A stretch of DNA of 61,724 bases. It comes from Candidatus Magasanikiibacteriota bacterium. Lineage in GTDB: Bacteria; Patescibacteriota; Patescibacteriia; Magasanikbacterales; UBA922. Location: NCBI GenBank assembly GCA_014729395.1, contig WJJZ01000004.1, positions 1 through 61,724 on the forward strand, written 5' to 3'. The position numbers and the translations under genes are program-made. Positions 612 to 10,582 of the stretch are shown in pieces. Every line of letters begins with the position of its first letter. The first letter of the stretch is position 1. The notes beneath the pieces are model-generated. The model had not been told where the DNA came from. It made no database searches and saw only the letters and a list, made by a program, of their open reading frames with translations.

Positions 612-3455
612 ATGTCAATTTATTACAAAATTTTTGGAGATCCGAACAAAAAAACTCTTAAGAAATTACAGCCAAAAGTAGATGAGATTAATTCACTTGA
701 AGCTGAATTTGAAAAATTAAATGAACAGGAGTTGAAAGCTAAAACAGGAGAATTCAGAGAAAGATTGTCGTCCGGAGAAACTATGGATGATATTTTAGCC
801 GAGGCTTTTGCCACTGTTCGCGAGGCATCAAAGCGTACCACCGGTATGCGACATTATGATGTCCAGCTTTTGGGTGGTATGGTTTTGCATAGTGGCCAAA
901 TTGCCGAGATGAGAACCGGTGAAGGTAAAACACTCGTAGCCACATTGCCTGTTTATTTAAATGCTTTGCAGGGTAAGGGTGTACATGTGGTTACAGTAAA
1001 TGATTATTTAGCCAAGCGCGACGCGGTTTGGATGGGTCAAATTTATGATTTTTTAGGTCTCTCCATCGGAGTAATTCAGAACCAGAGAATTTCTTATATT
1101 TATGATTCCAATATAAAAGGTGGGGAAGAGGGTGAAGAAAAAGACTTGGAACGAGATGAGAGTGGTAGTTTCAAAGTGGAAGATGATTATTTGCGAGCCG
1201 CCAGTCGTCAAGAGGTTTATCAATGTGATATAACCTATGGTACGAATAATGAATTCGGTTTTGATTACCTAAGGGACAATATGGTGCAAAATGTAAAAGA
1301 AATGGTAATGAGACCGGGTAATGAGATGAATTTTTGTATTATAGATGAAGTTGATTCCATATTAATTGATGAAGCCAGAACACCGCTTATTATTTCCGCT
1401 CCGGCCGAAGAGGCAACTGAGAGATATTATCAGTTTGCAAAACTTGTAAGACAATTAAATGAAGAAGAAGATTACAATATTGATGAAAAATTAAAAGCGG
1501 CCACTTTGACCGAAAAAGGCATTGAAAAATTTGAGAACTGGCTTGGCATAGACAATATTTATGTCGAAGGCGGTATAAGAACAGTTCATCATATTGAACA
1601 AGCTCTTAAAGCGGAAGTACTTTTTAAAAAAGACAAAGATTATATAGTTGAAAATAATGAAGTTGTAATCATTGATGAATTTACCGGCAGAAAAATGCCG
1701 GGACGACGATATTCAGAAGGTTTGCACCAAGCAATCGAAGCAAAAGAAAACGTAGAGATTCAACGCGAGAGTCGAACTTTAGCTACGATTACGTTTCAAA
1801 ATTTATTTAGAATGTATAATAAAATGGCCGGCATGACGGGTACGGCTAAAACCGAAGAGGAAGAATTTTTAAAAATTTATAATACCGAGGTGGTGGTTAT
1901 ACCAACCAACAGACCTGACGCCAGACTTGATCACTCTGATAAAATTTACAAAAATGAAAGAGGAAAATTTAAAGCCATTACAAAAAAAATCAAAGAGTGT
2001 CAGGAAAAAGGCCAACCGGTTTTGGTTGGTACTATTTCAGTAGAAAAAAATGAACAATTAAGTGACTATTTGTCTAAAGAGGGTGTTCAACATGAACTTT
2101 TGAATGCCAAGAACCATGAAAGAGAGGGTGAAGTTGTCGCTCAGGCCGGTCGCAAAGGGGCGGTAACATTGGCTACCAATATGGCCGGTCGTGGTGTGGA
2201 TATTAAGCTTGGTGGGAGTCCGGCATCATCAGAACGAGAAGAAGAAATAAAAAAGCTGGGAGGTTTGTTTGTTTTGGGTACGGAAAGACATGAGTCACGT
2301 CGTATTGATAACCAATTGCGTGGTCGTGCCGCCAGACAGGGTGATCCCGGTGAAACTCAATTTTATGTTTCCACCGAAGATGATTTGATGCGTATTTTTG
2401 CCGGGGATAGGCTGAAAAGTATGATGACCAGACTGAAAGTCCCCGAAGATATGCCAATAGAACAAAAGATGATTACCAAGATGCTTGAAAGCGCTCAGAA
2501 AAAAGTTGAGGGCCATCATTTTGATATCAGGAAACATGTTTTGCAGTATGATGATGTTTTAAACAGACATAGAACTGTAATTTATGAAAAAAGAAAACAG
2601 ATTTTGGAATTATCCGAGGCTGTGGATATTTTACCCGAAGAAAGTATAAAAAAAGACGACTCTTCTAAAAGTCAAAACGAAACAAGTGGGTTTGAAATTG
2701 AGAATTATAACAGTCTCAAGGAAATTATAATGGACTATATTGAGCAGGAAATTGAATTTGTGGTTTCGTTTCATACTAACCCCGAGGAAAGGGTGGAGAC
2801 GGAAACCAGTTCTTCTGAATGGAATTTAAAAGAGATTTATGAAACCATGAGAACTATTTTCCCTTTTACAAGTAGTGAGAGGGAAAAATTGCTTCATATG
2901 AATCCGGGTAAAGAAGGTAAGATGGATGAAGTGGATGCCAGGGAAAAAATTGTACAATTTTTACTTGATAAGGCCAAGGGATCATACGAAGAGATTGAAA
3001 AGAGTATTGTCGGTTCTGCCGATTCTGAAGAAGAGGGTGTTAAAATATTGCGCGGTATTGAAAAAAGTATTCTTCTCAGGTCAATTGATTCTTTGTGGGT
3101 TGATCATCTGGTTGATATAGATTATCTTCGAACCGGAATTGGTTTGCGCGGTTATGGACAACGTGATCCGTTGGTTGAGTACAAGCGAGAAACTTATCAT
3201 ATGTTTAATAGACTATTATCCAGTATTCAAAAAGAAGTGGTATATTCATTTTTTAAAGTGGGCGTAGGTCTGCAATTGGCGCCAACCGTAATGGCGTCAG
3301 ACAAGCTGACCTTGAAAGGAGCGCAGAAATCAACCAGCCAGCAAGGAAGGCACATACAAAAGAAACCCAGAAATGATTCCGGTGAGAAAATCGGTAGAAA
3401 TGATCCTTGCCCTTGCGGTAGCGGTAAAAAGTATAAAAAATGCCATGGTCGATAA
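612..3455 (+). CDS. secA: preprotein translocase ATPase SecA
   Basis: Motifs 'MRTGEGKTLVATLP', 'IIDEVDSILIDEARTPLIIS', 'TNMAGRGVDIKLGG', 'LGTERHESRRIDNQLRGRAARQGDPG' and the C-terminal zinc motif 'CPCGSGKKYKKCHG'. The ORF opens at GTG 603, but ATG 612 gives the canonical 'M....KIFG' N-terminus. Confidence 0.97.
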   Translation: MSIYYKIFGDPNKKTLKKLQPKVDEINSLEAEFEKLNEQELKAKTGEFRERLSSGETMDDILAEAFATVREASKRTTGMRHYDVQLLGGMVLHSGQIAEMRTGEGKTLVATLPVYLNALQGKGVHVVTVNDYLAKRDAVWMGQIYDFLGLSIGVIQNQRISYIYDSNIKGGEEGEEKDLERDESGSFKVEDDYLRAASRQEVYQCDITYGTNNEFGFDYLRDNMVQNVKEMVMRPGNEMNFCIIDEVDSILIDEARTPLIISAPAEEATERYYQFAKLVRQLNEEEDYNIDEKLKAATLTEKGIEKFENWLGIDNIYVEGGIRTVHHIEQALKAEVLFKKDKDYIVENNEVVIIDEFTGRKMPGRRYSEGLHQAIEAKENVEIQRESRTLATITFQNLFRMYNKMAGMTGTAKTEEEEFLKIYNTEVVVIPTNRPDARLDHSDKIYKNERGKFKAITKKIKECQEKGQPVLVGTISVEKNEQLSDYLSKEGVQHELLNAKNHEREGEVVAQAGRKGAVTLATNMAGRGVDIKLGGSPASSEREEEIKKLGGLFVLGTERHESRRIDNQLRGRAARQGDPGETQFYVSTEDDLMRIFAGDRLKSMMTRLKVPEDMPIEQKMITKMLESAQKKVEGHHFDIRKHVLQYDDVLNRHRTVIYEKRKQILELSEAVDILPEESIKKDDSSKSQNETSGFEIENYNSLKEIIMDYIEQEIEFVVSFHTNPEERVETETSSSEWNLKEIYETMRTIFPFTSSEREKLLHMNPGKEGKMDEVDAREKIVQFLLDKAKGSYEEIEKSIVGSADSEEEGVKILRGIEKSILLRSIDSLWVDHLVDIDYLRTGIGLRGYGQRDPLVEYKRETYHMFNRLLSSIQKEVVYSFFKVGVGLQLAPTVMASDKLTLKGAQKSTSQQGRHIQKKPRNDSGEKIGRNDPCPCGSGKKYKKCHGR

Positions 3456-3462
3456 TACGAAC

Positions 3463-3491
3463 TTGACAATTATAAAAAAAAATTATAAATT
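3463..3491 (+). promoter_or_regulatory. sigma-70-like promoter candidate
   Basis: TTGACA (3463-3468), 17-nt spacer, TAAATT (3486-3491). Confidence 0.4.
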
Positions 3492-3502
3492 ATGTGTCAA
3501 CA

Positions 3503-3524
3503 AAGCCCCGCGATTGCGGGGTTT
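3503..3524 (+). terminator. hairpin after secA (terminator or 5' stem-loop of the next transcript)
   Basis: CCCCGC (3506-3511) / GCGGGG (3516-3521), loop GATT, weak TTT tail. It lies downstream of the 3463 promoter candidate. Confidence 0.45.
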
Positions 3525-3557
3525 ATGGTAGGGTTCTTTATACAGGGAGGTGCAATA

Positions 3558-3977
3558 ATGTTCAGAAAAAATAAAGCACTGTTTATCAGTGCAACCATAT
3601 TTATCTCCGGAGATAATCCGGATAATTTTGAAGTTAACGTCGATGCGGCCAATCGAATTTTTGATTGGGCGGCCAATGGTTTTTTGATTGTTTCAATTAT
3701 ATATAGCGGGGATTATAAAGATACCGATACGCGCAGAAAAATCAAAGAAAAAATTGATTTAGCTTTTAAAAAATATTGTAATTTCAAATTGGATAATTTA
3801 AAAATCATGTGTGTTTCAGATTTGAAAGATCCGGATCCTTTTTGGGATTTGATGAGAAAGTCCGCTGTGAATGCCAGTCGTAGTTTATTGGTTGCAGAAA
3901 CCGAGCGGGGGGAAGAGTTGGCCCGGATCATTGATGTTCGCTTTGAATATGCAAGAGACTTTTTACGACATATGTAA
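3558..3977 (+). CDS. hypothetical protein (139 aa)
   Basis: GGGAGG (3545-3550) lies 7 nt before ATG 3558. The track ORF from 3492 reads through the hairpin, so I trimmed it. I recognise no family. Confidence 0.6.
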   Translation: MFRKNKALFISATIFISGDNPDNFEVNVDAANRIFDWAANGFLIVSIIYSGDYKDTDTRRKIKEKIDLAFKKYCNFKLDNLKIMCVSDLKDPDPFWDLMRKSAVNASRSLLVAETERGEELARIIDVRFEYARDFLRHM

Positions 3978-3995
3978 AAAGTCTCTAAAAAAAAG

Positions 3996-4027
3996 AGGTT
4001 CAGCACAGGCTGAACCTTATTTTTTTA
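3996..4027. terminator. bidirectional intrinsic terminator between convergent genes
   Basis: AGGTTCAG (3996-4003) / CTGAACCT (4011-4018), with an A-run upstream and a T-run downstream. Confidence 0.7.
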
Positions 4028-4571
4028 TTTCCAGTTTAATTCCATTATCTCGAATATTGAAAAAATCAATATCTTCAGTGGTAAGACAGCGACTATCATG
4101 GAATTTATATTCTCTCTCATCCAGTAAAAATATATCTACGCATTTTTCATCATTTTCAATATAACAGTCATCCAATGATTGGCATGGGCAGCTTTGTATT
4201 GTACGATTGTTTACTCGATTGCGTCTCCATGTGGCAAGCGGTTCACCTTTTTTGCACATACCGTGCTCTACCGAATCATCAAATATTTCTCCGCAGCCAT
4301 GCCATATATTTAAGAAGCCGATTTTTTTTGATGCTCCACAATAACATATGTTTAAGACAACTGCCAATGATAAAATTGTGATTGAAATAATATATTTCCT
4401 TTGTTTTGCAATTACAAACTTATTATTTTCTTTGTAATAATCAAAAAAATATATTATAAAAATCACAGCTAACAACCACAGCAGTAGTGGGGGAAGAAAG
4501 GTGATACCGGCTATTACAAATAGAGATATCGCCACTATGAAAAATATAAGAATAAGTAATGCGCAACCCAT
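4017..4571 (-). CDS. hypothetical membrane protein with Cys-rich C-terminal domain
   Basis: 184 aa with three N-terminal hydrophobic helices, then about 10 cysteines. A strong SD (GGAGG at 4578-4582 on the minus strand) lies 6 nt before the ATG. Confidence 0.7.
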   Translation of the reverse strand: MGCALLILIFFIVAISLFVIAGITFLPPLLLWLLAVIFIIYFFDYYKENNKFVIAKQRKYIISITILSLAVVLNICYCGASKKIGFLNIWHGCGEIFDDSVEHGMCKKGEPLATWRRNRVNNRTIQSCPCQSLDDCYIENDEKCVDIFLLDEREYKFHDSRCLTTEDIDFFNIRDNGIKLEIKK

Positions 4572-4758
4572 TAGTCACCTCCTTTTTATTTAATGAACAT
4601 GATATATTGACATATAAATGGAAAAATGTCAAAGTAATTGCGGTAAAAATTATCCACATAGATTGATTTTAAAAAGAGGCGGAAATCTGTTAGTATGACC
4701 AAGACTATGAATAATAATTTTTCAAAAGAAAACCATTTATAATCCGGTGATATTTTAG

Positions 4759-4784
4759 CCACTCCAATCGAGTGGTCTTTTTTT
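4759..4784 (+). terminator. intrinsic terminator-like hairpin 50 nt upstream of the PRTase-like CDS
   Basis: CCACTC (4759-4764), loop CAATC, GAGTGG (4770-4775), then TCTTTTTTT. Confidence 0.55.
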
Positions 4785-4834
4785 GAAAGTTCTTTATTCA
4801 ATTATTTACCACCAATAGGTATGGGAGGTGTAGC

Positions 4835-5740
4835 ATGCAAGCTATAGAGAAAGGACTTTGGTCCAGTCAGATCGGAAACGCCACTGTATATGTCCTTGAG
4901 ACAGAGGACAGTATTGCTCTTGCCCACAGTCGTGATTTGGTTGGGGAGGAGAAGCGTAAGTTGATGAAGAGAGTGGCGAGGCAGTATTTTTTGAAGTTTG
5001 CCCGTTTCTTTCGCAGTCTTGACCATTTTTCGTGGGTTTTGATTGAGCGCGGCGGTCGTTTCGTGGCGCCAACAGACGATGAGATGCTCGCTTGGTGGGG
5101 TGGACCCCGTCCAATTTCACGACTTGAAATGAAGCGTGATTTGGATCAGAAAAAGGAGTGTTCATGGCGGGGAAGGTTTGTATGGGGTTTGGAGGACTTG
5201 CTGGCAAGGCGAGATCGTAATTGGGTGGTTGGTGAAACTTGCTTGGCCAGCGGCACCACCTTGTATACGCTTGTGTCAGCAGCTCTTGATGTTTATCCAC
5301 AACCGAGTCTTAGACATGTAATTTTGGTTTGCCCGGTAGTGGGTTCATACGGATTAAGACGACTTATTAAGCTGTGTAGTGCAAACAACATAGCGCTCAC
5401 CGTTTATACTTCCGGTATTTGGTGGGTAAATAGCGAAGGGTATGATTCCGGCCTGCCATTTACTGATTTTGTTATCAATGATGAACCGGATCCCGACAAC
5501 CTTCAGTTTGTACCACCAAAAACCAAGTCGGTTTATCAACAGCAATACAGGGGCAAGCCCGTATGCGTTGTGGGGGATGCGGGCGACAGCATGGCTGTAC
5601 GAGATGATGGGTTGGAGGATAACAAAGCACAGTTTAATTACATGCGTGATACAGTCAAAGGTTTCAAGAACCTTGGGCTTGATCCACATAAATATTTTCC
5701 TTCCTGGCCGCTCAATGAACTGATTCTGGCAGTGGCTTAG
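4835..5740 (+). CDS. divergent uracil phosphoribosyltransferase-family (type I PRTase fold) protein
   Basis: 301 aa. By-eye alignment to E. coli Upp: 'VLIERGGRF' ~ 'VPILRAGLGM', 'ISRLEMKRD' ~ 'ISVVGMYRNE', 'WVVGETCLASGTT' ~ 'LIVDPMLATGGS', 'VVGDAGDSM' ~ 'PGLGDAGDK'. GGGAGG (4823-4828) precedes the ATG. The gene is visibly G+C-richer than its flanks. Confidence 0.6.
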   Translation: MQAIEKGLWSSQIGNATVYVLETEDSIALAHSRDLVGEEKRKLMKRVARQYFLKFARFFRSLDHFSWVLIERGGRFVAPTDDEMLAWWGGPRPISRLEMKRDLDQKKECSWRGRFVWGLEDLLARRDRNWVVGETCLASGTTLYTLVSAALDVYPQPSLRHVILVCPVVGSYGLRRLIKLCSANNIALTVYTSGIWWVNSEGYDSGLPFTDFVINDEPDPDNLQFVPPKTKSVYQQQYRGKPVCVVGDAGDSMAVRDDGLEDNKAQFNYMRDTVKGFKNLGLDPHKYFPSWPLNELILAVA

Positions 5741-5748
5741 AGCGATAT

Positions 5749-5797
5749 ACCTGTTTGGAGACGTTGCAAAGCACCAAACTCCAAGCAGGTTTTTTTA
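5749..5797 (+). terminator. intrinsic terminator after the PRTase-like gene
   Basis: 12-bp stem ACCTGTTTGGAG / CTCCAAGCAGGT (one G-U pair), then TTTTTTT. Confidence 0.75.
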
Positions 5798-5819
5798 AAT
5801 CATCGATATAAAAAAAGTA

Positions 5820-5848
5820 TTGACGATATAAATAATTTACTATACAAT
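5820..5848 (+). promoter_or_regulatory. sigma-70-like promoter for secDF
   Basis: TTGACG, 17-nt spacer, TACAAT. The ATG at 5865 follows after a very short leader. Confidence 0.5.
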
Positions 5849-5864
5849 AATCCCCAGTTTAAAT

Positions 5865-7919
5865 ATGAATAAAGTTAAAAAAGCAAACAGCGCAAGGTCA
5901 AAGGTCAGGTGGGGTATAATTGGCATACTCGCGCTTTTTATTATAGCCGGTTTTTTTGATGTGCCAACCTGGGCAAACAAAGCGATTGATACGGTTAATA
6001 ATACCGCATATTTAGGTATACCCAGAATTCCCGAAAAGGGTTTTAATCTTGGGTTGGATTTACAGGGCGGCGCTCATCTTATTTACCAGGCGGATGTCAG
6101 TGGAATAAAAGAAAGTGAAAAAGGTGCTGCAGTAGAAGGGGTTAGAGATGTGATTGAAAGAAGAGTGAACGCAATCGGTGTCTCTGAACCTAATGTACAA
6201 ACCACCAAAGTGGGAAACGATTATCGAGTTATTGTGGAATTACCCGGGGTAACCGATATAAACGAAGCTATTAACATGATTGGCGAGACTCCAATTTTGG
6301 AATTTAAAGAAGAAAATGATGAGCCGCAAAGAGAGCTAACTGAAGGAGAGAAGCAGCAATTGAGTGATAATAATTTACAAGCAGCTCAAAAAGCTACTGA
6401 GGCTTTGGATAAGATTAAAGAAGGGGCTGAATTTGGTGAGATTGCAAAAGAGTATTCAGAAGATGAATTAAGTAAAAATAATGGCGGTTATTTGGGTTAT
6501 ATTGACAGATCTTCGCCTTATCCCGCGCTTTATTCATGGGCCGAAAATGCTCAAGAGGGGGATTTGGGAGAATTGGTTCAGTCAAGCGAGGGTTTAAACA
6601 TACTTAAAAGAGGAGCTGAACGAGACGGTCAGGTGGAAGTGGAAGCCAGTCATATTTTAATTTGTTATCAAGGAACACAATTTTGTCCTGATAACGAATT
6701 GACTAAAGACGAAGCGTTTTTAAAAGCTCAGTCACTTTTCCATGAAGCAAATGCGGAAAATTTTAGCGATTTGGCAAAAGAAAATTCCACAGATCCCGGG
6801 ACAAAAGATGTTGGTGGTGATCTGGGTTGGATAAGTAAAGGTCTACTTGTTACCGAAGTTGATGAGCCGCTTTTTTCATCTGAAGTTGGTCAAATAATCG
6901 GTCCGGTTGAATCTCCTTTCGGTTATCATATTTTATATAAAAAGAATCAAAGAGTAGGTAAAGAATATGAAATTTGGCGAATACTGGTAAAGACCATGAC
7001 AGCGGCAGACATTTTACCTCCTGATGATCCTTGGAAAAATACAGGATTATCCGGTAAGCAGCTTGAAAAAGCGGAAGTGGTTTCAGATCCACAAACCGGA
7101 GCTATACAGGTTTCTCTGTTGTTTGACGAAGAAGGAAAAGATTTATTTAAAGAACTTACAGAAAGAAATATCAGCAAACCGATAGCAATATTTCTAGATG
7201 GAGCACCGATTAGTATTCCAACCGTAAATAGTGTAATCCCGGATGGTAGAGCTGTAATTCAGGGTAATTTTAATCTAAGTGAGGCACAATTGTTGGCACA
7301 GAGATTAAATGCCGGTGCTCTGCCGGTTCCGGTTGAGCTGATTGCTCAGCAGAGTATTGGTGCCAGCTTGGGTGCCGAATCATTACAAAAAAGTTTGAAA
7401 GCCGGTATTGTCGGTTTGATCTTAGTAATGCTTTTCATGCTGATTTATTATAGATTGCCCGGTTTGGTGTCTGTTTTTTCTCTTACTTTGTATATCACTT
7501 TGACACTGGCCATTTTCAAATTGATCGGCGTTACTTTGACATTGGCCGGAATCGCAGGATTTATTTTGTCAATCGGTATGGCGGTTGATGCAAATGTTCT
7601 GATTTTTGAGAGATTAAAAGAAGAGCTTAAAGAAGGTAAAAGTCTAAAGGCCGCGGTTGAAGAAGGATTTTTACGAGCATGGACGTCTATCAGGGATGGG
7701 AATATTTCCACGCTGATTACTTGTGTACTGTTAATTTGGTTTGGTTCCAGTTTTGTGCAAGGTTTTGCCGTAACTTTGGCAATTGGTATTTTAATCAGTA
7801 TGTTTTCGGCTATTACAGTGACGCGTGTCATCTTGAGATTTGTGGTACCTTGGTTCAAACCGGAAGGCGGTTTCATGTTTTTGGGCAGTAAAAGAGTTGA
7901 GAACAAAAAGACTGAGTAA
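5865..7919 (+). CDS. secD: protein translocase subunit SecD with inserted PpiC/parvulin-type PPIase region
   Basis: SecD signatures: 'GLDLQGGAHLIYQ', 'ETPILEF', 'IAIFLDGAPISIPTV' and C-terminal TM helices containing 'GMAVDANVLIFERLKEE'. Residues ~153-385 carry parvulin motifs: 'GGYLGYI', 'ASHILI', 'GGDLGWI', 'PFGYHILY'. Confidence 0.9.
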   Translation: MNKVKKANSARSKVRWGIIGILALFIIAGFFDVPTWANKAIDTVNNTAYLGIPRIPEKGFNLGLDLQGGAHLIYQADVSGIKESEKGAAVEGVRDVIERRVNAIGVSEPNVQTTKVGNDYRVIVELPGVTDINEAINMIGETPILEFKEENDEPQRELTEGEKQQLSDNNLQAAQKATEALDKIKEGAEFGEIAKEYSEDELSKNNGGYLGYIDRSSPYPALYSWAENAQEGDLGELVQSSEGLNILKRGAERDGQVEVEASHILICYQGTQFCPDNELTKDEAFLKAQSLFHEANAENFSDLAKENSTDPGTKDVGGDLGWISKGLLVTEVDEPLFSSEVGQIIGPVESPFGYHILYKKNQRVGKEYEIWRILVKTMTAADILPPDDPWKNTGLSGKQLEKAEVVSDPQTGAIQVSLLFDEEGKDLFKELTERNISKPIAIFLDGAPISIPTVNSVIPDGRAVIQGNFNLSEAQLLAQRLNAGALPVPVELIAQQSIGASLGAESLQKSLKAGIVGLILVMLFMLIYYRLPGLVSVFSLTLYITLTLAIFKLIGVTLTLAGIAGFILSIGMAVDANVLIFERLKEELKEGKSLKAAVEEGFLRAWTSIRDGNISTLITCVLLIWFGSSFVQGFAVTLAIGILISMFSAITVTRVILRFVVPWFKPEGGFMFLGSKRVENKKTE

Positions 7920-9157: not shown

Positions 9158-10582
9158 ATGAATGTAGAAATTGGAATTTTTTCTTTCAATTTAGGTAGTC
9201 TTAGCGACTTTTTTGCACAAGGTATATTTCAAATCATTATTCAGTTGCTTGCTATTTTTGGCTGGTTGGTACTGGCCGCTCTTTTGTTATTTGTAGCTTT
9301 GTTTTTTTATCAGGAATATAGACAGGAAAAATATACCAAAGACTGGAAATGGGTTGTCTTGGCTATAGATATTCCACCTTTAAATTTACAAACTCCAAAA
9401 GCGGTCGAGCAGATGTTTGCCCAACTGGCCGGAGCATTTGACCAGCCAAATATTGCTGACAAATTTTATTATGGCTATAAACAAAAATGGTTTAGTTTTG
9501 AGATCGTTAGTATTGAGGGTTATATCCAATTTTTAGTGCGTACGGAAGAAGCTTTTAGAGATTTGGTTGAAGCATCTATATACGCTCAGTATCCGGATGC
9601 TGAAATTACAGAAGTGGAGGATTATGTGAATGAGATTCCCGATTCCTATCCAAATGAAGAATATGATTTGTGGATGGCTGATTTTGGTCTGGAAGAAGAA
9701 GATTCATATCCGATAAGAACTTTTGATGATTTTATGGACAAAATTTCAAAAGATGATATTTTGAAAGACCCGATGAGTGCTTTTTTGGAAAGTTTTTCCA
9801 GAATTGGTCCGGGAGAACAAATGTGGTTTCAGATTTTATTGGAACCCATATCCAGTTCATGGAAGGAGCAGTCAATAAAAAAGGTCAAAGAGTTGATCGG
9901 TGACAAAAGTTTGGGGAGTACTGGCGGGAGTAAAGTGGCTGAATTTATTACCAGTGGATCCCTAAAAGCGATTGAATCGATTGGAGACCAAGTTTTTGGT
10001 AGGGAGGCCGGCGCTTCAAATGGAAATGAAATTGATCGAGATGCTCCAAATCAGCTACAGTACTTAACTCCGGGTCAGACCAAGTTGGTGGAAGCGATTG
10101 AAAATAAAATAAGTAAAATCGGTTTTAAAGTTAAGTTGCGTGGTGGCTATATCGCGCGTAAAGAAGTTTTCAAAGCGGAGAGAGGGGTAAATTTAATGAT
10201 TGGTGCTATTAACCAATATAATATTCCAAGCGCAAATTCAATACTTCCGAAATATGGTGTTGGTGCTTCATACTTCTTCAAAGACCAAAGAAAAGCCTAC
10301 AGAAAGAGATTGTTAATCAAGGCGTACAAAAAAAGAAAAATAGCCGTGGGAGCTAATCCTTTTATATTAAATATTGAAGAACTGGCGACGTTGTGGCATT
10401 TTCCCATGTCTCAAGTTAAAGCACCATTATTGCAAAAAACTCAGGCAAAACAAACCGAACCCCCGATTGGCTTGCCGGTTGAAGGTGTTCCGGAACCGGA
10501 AAAAGAAGAGGAGAGTGAAGAAGAAGGTTATCAAATTGATACCGGAGATGTTGGATTTAAAGAAGATGTTGAGTTTGGTTAA
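9158..10582 (+). CDS. conserved-looking membrane-anchored protein of unknown function
   Basis: 474 aa with an N-terminal TM region. 'FSFEIVSIEGYIQFLVRTEE..IYAQYPDAEITEVEDY' and 'LATLWHFP' resemble a CPR/archaeal family that I recall neighbouring FtsK/VirD4-like ATPases. I cannot verify that here. Confidence 0.6.
   Translation: MNVEIGIFSFNLGSLSDFFAQGIFQIIIQLLAIFGWLVLAALLLFVALFFYQEYRQEKYTKDWKWVVLAIDIPPLNLQTPKAVEQMFAQLAGAFDQPNIADKFYYGYKQKWFSFEIVSIEGYIQFLVRTEEAFRDLVEASIYAQYPDAEITEVEDYVNEIPDSYPNEEYDLWMADFGLEEEDSYPIRTFDDFMDKISKDDILKDPMSAFLESFSRIGPGEQMWFQILLEPISSSWKEQSIKKVKELIGDKSLGSTGGSKVAEFITSGSLKAIESIGDQVFGREAGASNGNEIDRDAPNQLQYLTPGQTKLVEAIENKISKIGFKVKLRGGYIARKEVFKAERGVNLMIGAINQYNIPSANSILPKYGVGASYFFKDQRKAYRKRLLIKAYKKRKIAVGANPFILNIEELATLWHFPMSQVKAPLLQKTQAKQTEPPIGLPVEGVPEPEKEEESEEEGYQIDTGDVGFKEDVEFG

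Follow-up and report, generated by a model that had tools for sequence, protein, structure and literature searches.

A very rare uracil phosphoribosyltransferase-like protein family encoded by a G+C-rich gene between SecA and SecD

The gene at 4835–5740 and its composition

The DNA analysed in the present study (hereafter the window) is a 61.7-kb stretch (positions 1–61,724) of contig WJJZ01000004.1 of the Candidatus Magasanikiibacteriota bacterium assembly GCA_014729395.1, and our subject is the gene at positions 4835–5740 of its forward strand. From the open reading frame (ORF) list, profile searches, AlphaFold2, Foldseek, hhalign and conservation analysis, its 301-residue product was assigned to a rare family of uracil phosphoribosyltransferase (UPRT)-like type I phosphoribosyltransferases (PRTases). 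In the window its neighbours are SecA, a 161-residue ORF, a 184-residue membrane ORF and SecD, and the gene of its closest homologue, P0002, occupies the same SecA–SecD slot in a related genome (locus L001). The features of the gene and its surroundings are as follows.

4650–4658, plus strand: TTATCCACA, identical to the DnaA-box consensus, a candidate operator 185 nt before the ATG
4688–4696, plus strand: putative extended −10 element TGTTAGTAT, conserved as TGATAGAAT in the alignment with L001 and not listed by a generic promoter scan
4707–4742, plus strand: leader micro-ORF of 11 codons (MNNNFSKENHL); its ATG aligns with an ATG in L001, a Shine–Dalgarno sequence is lacking and the peptide is not conserved
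4758–4784, plus strand: leader hairpin GCCACTC-CAATC-GAGTGGT followed by a T-run, from the terminator scan, ~50 nt before the ATG
4823–4828, plus strand: ribosome-binding site (RBS) GGGAGG, 6 nt before the ATG, with GGAGGTG conserved in L001
4835–5740, plus strand: coding sequence (CDS) of the UPRT-like PRTase, 301 residues, ATG start
5293–5301, plus strand: second TTATCCACA, within the CDS, not conserved in L001 and possibly due to chance
5749–5797, plus strand: intrinsic terminator, a 12-bp stem then T7 (hairpin 5749–5790, T-run to 5796; −20 kcal/mol, z=−4.4, 0 of 200 shuffled sequences folding as well)

A first-pass annotation, made by eye, had described the gene as a G+C-rich island covered by shadow ORFs on both strands, preceded by a GGGAGG RBS and bracketed by hairpins, and all of these observations held on computation. 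The gene has a G+C content of 0.478 against a window mean of 0.353 (standard deviation (sd) 0.034, z=3.6) and is the highest-G+C 906-bp stretch of the whole window. Its G+C content at third codon positions (GC3) was 0.467, whereas the other 48 ORFs of at least 120 residues were all at or below 0.36, and in the plus frame the three codon positions ranked GC1>GC3>GC2. Given the amino-acid sequence and the codon usage of the window, a G+C content of 0.417 and a GC3 of 0.333 would be expected. The synonymous excess was +0.134, which exceeds the other genes by 4.1 sd, and in codon log-likelihood the gene fell 3.9 sd below them, making the gene an outlier in codon usage also. Its product is rich in R, W, V, D, P and G and poor in K, I, N and E; approximately half of the G+C excess reflects amino-acid composition and half synonymous codon choice. 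The overlapping shadow ORFs (152, 111, 93, 74 and 61 residues) are a by-product of the scarcity of stop codons in G+C-richer DNA.

Fold, active-site motifs and family membership

With the 301-residue protein as query, neither Pfam nor NCBIfam gave a match even at E≤10, UPRTase (PF14681) and TIGR01091 included, so that, as the first pass had expected, the protein does not group with ordinary Upp. No match was obtained to Pfam Pribosyltran, nor in PADLOC, PHROGs and PDB sequence searches with the protein alone at permissive thresholds. P0002, 60% identical, was the only homologue among 5.8 billion proteins in a single-sequence search; a word-indexed profile search of the same 5.8 billion added P0017 only, and an exhaustive HMMER scan of 1.84 billion representative proteins returned one close and 16 distant clusters (19–26% identity). 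Pairwise identity within the family is otherwise 15–47%. The resulting alignment of 18 sequences was used for AlphaFold2, for the family profile and for all conservation counts below. Four of the 18 members matched Pfam UPRTase weakly (best E 5e-4), and against proteins of known structure the family profile matched Sulfolobus UPRT (0.011) and, more strongly, a Thermus PRTase (1wd5; 6.7e-5), over the loop that binds phosphoribosyl pyrophosphate (PRPP). Searches for related loci recovered only the contig of L001 in GTDB genomes and none in JGI metagenomes; three queries of viral contigs and translated searches of phage genomes and plasmids found no family relatives, and a degenerate DNA pattern for the PRPP loop gave no match. 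A literature search found nothing on DUF6938 (a neighbour in some relatives, below), PRTase-CE or UPRT in bacteria of the candidate phyla radiation (CPR). The family is thus real but very rare, with ~18 clusters of relatives, and the 301-residue protein belongs to a distinct, so far unnamed UPRT-derived family.

The first pass had called for structure modelling, and the 18-sequence alignment yielded a confident AlphaFold2 model of a single 301-residue domain, with a predicted local distance difference test score (pLDDT) of 90.1 and a predicted template-modelling score (pTM) of 0.90; a model from a 2-sequence alignment was unusable (pLDDT 51.5). In a Foldseek search of the PDB with this model, ranks 1–18 were all UPRTs (E 9.6e-9 to 9e-6, TM(target) 0.55–0.65, 11–16% identity), followed by xanthine PRTase (XPRT), hypoxanthine-guanine PRTase (HGPRT) and PyrR (ranks 34–40). 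The predicted fold is UPRT-like, and UPRT is its nearest structural neighbour. Aligned by hhalign to a UPRT profile built from four solved sequences, residues 16–257 fell on Upp 1–208 with E=4.5e-5 (global) and 1.9e-4 to 2e-4 (local). This alignment, in which E. coli Upp is the 2ehj sequence, placed the motifs in order, so that the earlier by-eye alignment to Upp was largely right. In residue numbering of the 301-residue protein, the rows marked Upp coming from hhalign, they are:

72–74: pyrophosphate (PPi) loop, R72-G73-G74, equivalent to E. coli Upp R78-A79-G80
100–101: flexible loop, R101 equivalent to E. coli Upp R103, with K100-R101 on Upp Y-R
134–142: PRPP loop, E134-T-C-L-A-S-G-T-T, E134 equivalent to Upp D130 (Upp, D-P-M-L-A-T-G-G-S)
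strand LTVYTSGIWW, equivalent to E. coli Upp VELYTASIDQ
191–203: YTSGIWWVNSEGY, with E-G-Y at 201–203
204–243: family-specific insert, with T210, D211 and Y238
244–252: C-terminal base-site motif CVVGDAGDS (C244–S252), in which G247-D-A-G-D251 is equivalent to E. coli Upp G198–D202
253–301: helical C-terminal extension

The residues of the PPi, flexible and PRPP loops are similar rather than identical to those of Upp, and they are conserved across the family. An acidic residue (D or E) occupies position 134 in all 18 members and R101 is kept in 17 of 17; A138, G202, T210, D211, C244 and G247 are invariant, and G140, D248 and Y238 (17/18 each) and C136 (16/18) nearly so. The lowest entropy in the alignment lies in the PRPP loop and the CxVGDxGxS motif. 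This pattern of conserved catalytic positions reads, from the alignment, as the signature of a maintained active site. The first pass had also claimed an altered acidic pair in the PRPP loop; this did not hold, since E134 aligns with Upp D130, Upp itself reads D-P there and the position is acidic in every family member.

The base-binding end departs from that of Upp. Recognition of uracil in UPRT structures is chiefly through the backbone of the Y-I-x-P-G-L-G-D segment. The contiguous Upp sequence G-Y-I-x-P-G-L-G-D-A-G-D-R-x-F-G-T is split in the present protein, with E-G-Y (201–203) and V-G-D-A-G-D-S (246–252) lying ~40 residues apart; the insert between the E-G-Y turn and C244 is about 37–40 residues long, in agreement with the insertion before GDAGD that had been noticed by eye. 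The terminal R-x-F-G-T of Upp is absent and a helical extension stands in its place, and the previously proposed extensions at both ends amount to ~15 residues at the N-terminus and ~45–50 at the C-terminus. Because the family-specific insert, which carries family-invariant residues, interrupts the uracil-binding segment, the base specificity has probably changed, and the earlier suggestion of a changed substrate appears plausible to that extent.

Control region, synteny and allele replacement

The window and L001 share more than the gene. In L001 the order is SecA, a homologue of the 161-residue ORF, a variable stretch, the family gene, SecD, SecF, DUF8128, DnaG, RpoD, superoxide dismutase (SOD) and phosphoglucose isomerase (PGI), and the neighbouring proteins are 56–85% identical to those of the window, as compared with 60% for the family protein. 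Four-fold degenerate sites, with 0.29–0.37 identical against 0.22–0.24 expected, are near saturation. The common slot together with these near-saturated sites therefore shows that the gene was present before the two lineages split. The family gene of L001 is likewise G+C-rich, at 0.572 against 0.42 in its genome, with a GC3 of 0.683 against ~0.48. A canonical upp, of which the first pass had suggested that the gene is a paralogue, was not found in the window or in L001, the two stretches searched.

The stretch between SecA and the family gene (window 3492–4571; L001 7281–9659) also varies between the two. Its first ORF (161 residues in the window, 140 in L001) is only 37–38% identical, and the minus-strand genes that follow are non-homologous: the window has a gene for a Cys-rich membrane protein, whereas L001 has two lipoprotein genes, of which one is G+C-rich (0.528). 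Between its convergent genes 3492–3977 (plus strand) and 4017–4571 (minus strand), the window has a bidirectional terminator at 3995–4018, with a 10-bp stem and a T-run on either strand. Downstream, SecD of L001 (11019–13049) contains PpiC-type rotamase domains according to precomputed Pfam matches, and the window SecD (5865–7919) is 77% identical and of equal length; such a SecD–PPIase fusion is unusual. The database label of the L001/L007 metagenome-assembled genome, 'uncultured Gammaproteobacteria bacterium', may be wrong, given its short RpoD with a Lys-rich N-terminus, its gene content and its low G+C. Low G+C and gene content, with the groundwater and RuBisCO III settings of relatives, would fit a small-genome, possibly CPR-like lineage.

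The comparison of relatives covered 12 loci (window, L001, L002, L005, L006 and L008–L014). TTATCCACA occurs twice in the window against 0.83 copies expected. It also lies 108–210 nt 5′ of the family gene, on the same strand, in L001, L006, L008, L009, L012 and L013, so that with the window an upstream copy is found in seven loci of two lineages whose proteins are only ~25% identical. In L009, L012 and L013 it adjoins a TTGCAT-N16/17-TATAAT promoter. On these sequence grounds we put forward, as a hypothesis, that DnaA binds and controls the gene at this site. The leader hairpin of the window is kept in L001, where one one-sided change preserves pairing, and in both it has the form of a canonical intrinsic terminator; a GC hairpin with a T-rich run lies between promoter and RBS in 9 of the 12 loci. 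It could act as an attenuator or terminator, or as a 5′ stabilizer. Rfam, searched with the leader at E≤1, returned no family, PyrR element or riboswitch, and over the whole window nothing, whether tRNA, rRNA or riboswitch, reached the gathering threshold; an RsmY-like match below that threshold, at 3422–3525 (E=0.022), is probably due to chance. The significance of the leader micro-ORF is doubtful. An analogous hairpin and T-run follow the stop codon of the family gene in L001. We read these elements as those of a regulated, self-contained transcription unit, with attenuation at the hairpin as a further hypothesis.

Five of the loci come from closely related genomes in which the flanking DNA is 80–95% identical. 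This identity ends ~25 nt before the start codon of the family gene and resumes ~8 nt after its stop codon. The slot is bounded on one side by a peptidase-M4 gene and on the other by a DUF6938/EamA pair whose products are 89–93% identical among the five, and the alleles within it (P04, P07, P09, P13 and P05) are only 23–39% identical, with no DNA similarity. Their positions, and those of TTATCCACA, are given below together with the site in L001.

L006: allele 493–1578; TTATCCACA at 367
L008: allele 6717–7637; TTATCCACA at 6597
L009: allele 1961–3022; TTATCCACA at 1853
L012: allele 830–1888; TTATCCACA at 620 and 1959
L013: allele 461–1384; TTATCCACA at 336
L001: TTATCCACA at 9814

In a neighbour-joining tree (Poisson distance, 500 bootstraps), the slot alleles fell into two deep clades with a support of 1.0 each, support for monophyly of the same-slot alleles was 0.0, and the L008 allele was closest to that of L005, which has a different genomic context. 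Since near-identical flanks hold alleles of 23–39% identity from two clades, the comparison indicates xenologous replacement rather than divergence in situ.

Extra small G+C-rich ORFs were present in the variable segments of L009 (82 residues, 3090–3338) and L012 (83 and 111 residues, 287–538 and 2206–2541), and the variable segment of L001 carries a gene for a 230-residue lipoprotein. We considered the small ORFs as antitoxin-like partners and rejected them, as they are unrelated to one another. DUF6938 and EamA were also set aside as weak candidates for functional partners: they are separate transcription units, stay conserved where the allele beside them has been exchanged, and do not occur in the window. 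No conserved partner gene was found among the 12 loci. In L010 (323–6147), the family member is enclosed in the operon of an NMT1-type ABC importer, with the binding-protein gene on one side and the ATPase gene on the other, and it lies immediately 5′ of the genes for ribose-1,5-bisphosphate isomerase and type III RuBisCO, which together constitute a nucleotide-salvage pentose-bisphosphate module. In L014 (1526–3042), a gene for a 168-residue DCD protein (dCTP-deaminase family) begins 5 nt 3′ of the family member, apparently in one operon with it. The loci of the other relatives have housekeeping or envelope neighbours. The L010 and L014 neighbours favour a role in nucleotide metabolism, and such links are few.

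The G+C excess extends over the family. The difference between gene and host averaged +0.089 over the 12 loci, was at least 0.07 in eight of them and +0.069 in L009, and was absent only from L006, L010 and L014; gene G+C tracked host G+C with r=0.70. The excess is thus a property of the whole family and not of one genome, and a single recent transfer with incomplete amelioration does not account for it. The first pass had proposed that the gene was horizontally acquired. At the level of the family this is real, in the form of cassette-like xenologous replacement, whereas a recent single acquisition is contradicted by the L001 orthologue with its same slot, same offset and nearly saturated four-fold sites. 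Of the accounts available, an exchange history best fits the anomalous G+C and codon usage, and the positive sign of the offset may be explained by biased gene conversion, the donor pool or selection.

Interpretation and comparison with known systems

The reading that we favour, and to which we give an even chance, is that the gene sits on an exchangeable cassette and encodes an active PRPP-dependent type I PRTase of Upp descent whose acceptor is non-canonical. The 301-residue protein would bind PRPP-Mg and transfer ribose 5-phosphate to a nitrogen heterocycle. The insert, with T210-D211 and Y238, would act along with C244, which is invariant, and C136, which is conserved, to replace the short Y-I-I-P-G segment with which Upp reads uracil, and because that segment has been replaced, the acceptor is probably not plain uracil, or not uracil alone. 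The unit would comprise the TTATCCACA box and promoter, the leader hairpin with its U-run, the RBS, the CDS and the terminator, and by cassette exchange a constant control region and chromosomal slot would come to carry deeply different alleles in relatives.

Several points weigh against this reading. The sequence link to UPRT is weak, with an hhalign probability of 42–48% and no Pfam match for the protein; the alignment to Upp is ambiguous between residue 199 and C244; R72 of the PPi loop is exchanged for W, S, T or N in six members; and no family member has a known activity or ligand. Nucleotide-metabolism neighbours are found in only 2 of the 12 loci, and in every locus the gene appears to be transcribed on its own. 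Exchange accounts for an atypical composition, not for an offset that is always positive. Lastly, salvage enzymes do not usually show such extreme diversity among alleles, which would rather suggest a role in conflict.

Such a role is the content of a second explanation, which we hold tentatively and regard as unlikely: the protein would be an anti-phage or inter-bacterial effector whose PRTase chemistry depletes PRPP or nucleotide pools or makes a modified nucleotide, silenced by the leader terminator and switched on by stress. Hypervariability with xenologous alleles at a fixed slot would fit this, as would the atypical composition, the unrelated small G+C-rich ORFs of the variable segments, the terminator-like hairpin between promoter and RBS, and the precedents of PRTase folds in ShosT (PMC11961720), retron type III-A3 (PMC12746101) and selfish elements (PMC5512222). 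However, PADLOC and PHROGs searches were negative, a conserved partner, antitoxin or sensor gene is lacking, the window neighbours are SecA and SecDF instead of defence genes, and relatives were not found on viral contigs, phages or plasmids. The protein also lacks the hydrolase domain and DprA-like neighbour of ShosT and is closest to UPRT, not to the APRT-like (adenine PRTase-like) or ComFC-like PRTases of conflict systems. A broader and speculative form of this idea, which we think improbable, is that bacteria with small genomes, perhaps of CPR type, possess a previously unrecognized class of hypervariable stand-alone PRTase cassettes. Recombination would exchange many deeply divergent alleles, which may differ from one another in the base or ligand that they recognize, behind a single conserved DnaA-box/attenuator region. 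Their products would serve in genetic conflict with phages or competitors, by forming or degrading a nucleotide-like molecule or by using up PRPP, and biased gene conversion linked to the recombination would explain the G+C excess.

We also considered whether the protein might be the lineage's own uracil-salvage enzyme, a fast-diverged functional analogue of Upp in a genome that is reduced, low in G+C and reliant on base salvage. A UPRT-like fold with all of the PRPP-binding and catalytic motifs, the lack of a canonical upp in the window and L001, the nucleotide-salvage genes of L010 and the DCD gene of L014 beside relatives, and the syntenic retention of the gene in two genomes are what such an enzyme would show. 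Yet the 37–40-residue insert with its family-invariant residues breaks the uracil-reading segment, and a core salvage enzyme should be widespread in its lineage rather than confined to ~18 clusters. Moreover, alleles of 23–39% identity in near-identical genomes are unlike a housekeeping enzyme, real Upp being ~50% identical between E. coli and Thermus. On balance this explanation is doubtful.

PyrR is a PRTase-fold RNA-binding attenuator, and a PyrR-like regulator that binds the hairpin of its own or other mRNA leaders for nucleotide-responsive termination control would be consistent with the PyrR structures among the Foldseek matches and with the hairpin and U-run in the leaders of most family genes. 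It is nevertheless very improbable: UPRTs score far better than PyrR in Foldseek, the leader contains neither the PyrR element nor any other Rfam family at the threshold given above, in the L008 group the short leader leaves no room for alternative antiterminator folds, and hypervariable alleles behind a constant leader argue against a specific protein–RNA pairing. The abrupt composition shift and many shadow ORFs might suggest an artefact, whether through misassembly, a contaminating G+C-rich fragment or a chance ORF in non-coding DNA. It is effectively refuted by the syntenic orthologue, which the independent assembly of L001 has in the same SecA–SecD position with a conserved leader. The 60% protein identity over nearly randomized four-fold sites, the GC1>GC3>GC2 order and the confident fold model also speak against it.

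Type I PRTases are textbook salvage enzymes. Some of them have recently been shown to act as anti-phage toxins. The present locus defines an unannotated UPRT-derived family with a predicted intact PRPP site and what appears to be a rebuilt base pocket, marked further by allele swapping at a fixed slot, by a putative DnaA-box promoter and leader hairpin, and by a G+C content nearly always above that of the host. If the acceptor is new, the family adds a reaction to the nucleotide metabolism of small-genome bacteria; if conflict underlies its diversity, the family represents a new module of defence or offence that consists of one gene. Either way, the family-wide G+C offset provides a clean test case for genes that resist amelioration.

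Among known systems, ShosT consists of an N-terminal hydrolase (pyrophosphatase) domain and an APRT-like PRTase and is paired with the DprA-like ShosA (PMC11961720). The present protein shares with it a PRTase fold with PPi, flexible and PRPP loops and a rapidly exchanged accessory context, but has one UPRT-like domain and no DprA-like neighbour, and PADLOC was negative for the protein and its two upstream neighbours. The effectors of type III-A3 retrons (e.g. Retron-Eco11) are PRTase-like and accompany a reverse transcriptase (RT) and a non-coding RNA (ncRNA) (PMC12746101), and the PRTases of phage and plasmid polyvalent proteins are fused to MuF and other domains (PMC5512222); the two share a DD motif and ComFC-like features (PMC12746101, PMC5512222). 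Theirs are PRTase-superfamily domains used in genetic conflict, outside ordinary salvage, which is the likeness to the present case. Unlike them, the 301-residue protein reads G-E in its loop and has no RT, ncRNA or fusion: no RT-sized ORF was found within 4 kb, Rfam gave nothing in 3400–6000 and PADLOC was negative. PyrR resembles the present protein in its type I PRTase fold and in the terminator hairpin of the leader 5′ of the gene, whereas it is a weaker fold match than UPRT and Rfam found no PyrR-binding RNA element. ShosT, a retron effector, a polyvalent-protein PRTase and PyrR were each rejected as the identity of the protein on domains, partners, Rfam and PADLOC results, and motifs.

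Upp (PF14681; PDB 2ehj, 1i5e, 1o5o and 5e38) is the best structural match and has the same order of elements. Common to both are an R-[AG]-G PPi loop, a flexible-loop Arg, a [DE]-x-x-L-A-[ST]-G PRPP loop at nearly the same residue number (134 compared with 130), a Y-T-[AS]-x-I strand and G-D-A-G-D. The differences are an identity of 11–17% without a Pfam or NCBIfam match, an added 15-residue N-terminal hairpin and the loss of the Upp 51–69 hairpin, about 37–40 residues in place of the Y-I-I-P-G uracil-binding turn, and a helical C-terminal extension of 45–50 residues where Upp ends in R/K-x-F-G-T-K. C136, G202, T210-D211, Y238 and C244, in or beside the insert, are family-specific without a counterpart in Upp, and the family gene is hypervariable and cassette-exchanged, whereas upp is a housekeeping gene. 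Set apart from Upp by two of its defining features, the family model and the contiguous uracil-binding segment, the protein is a UPRT-derived variant within the PRTase superfamily.

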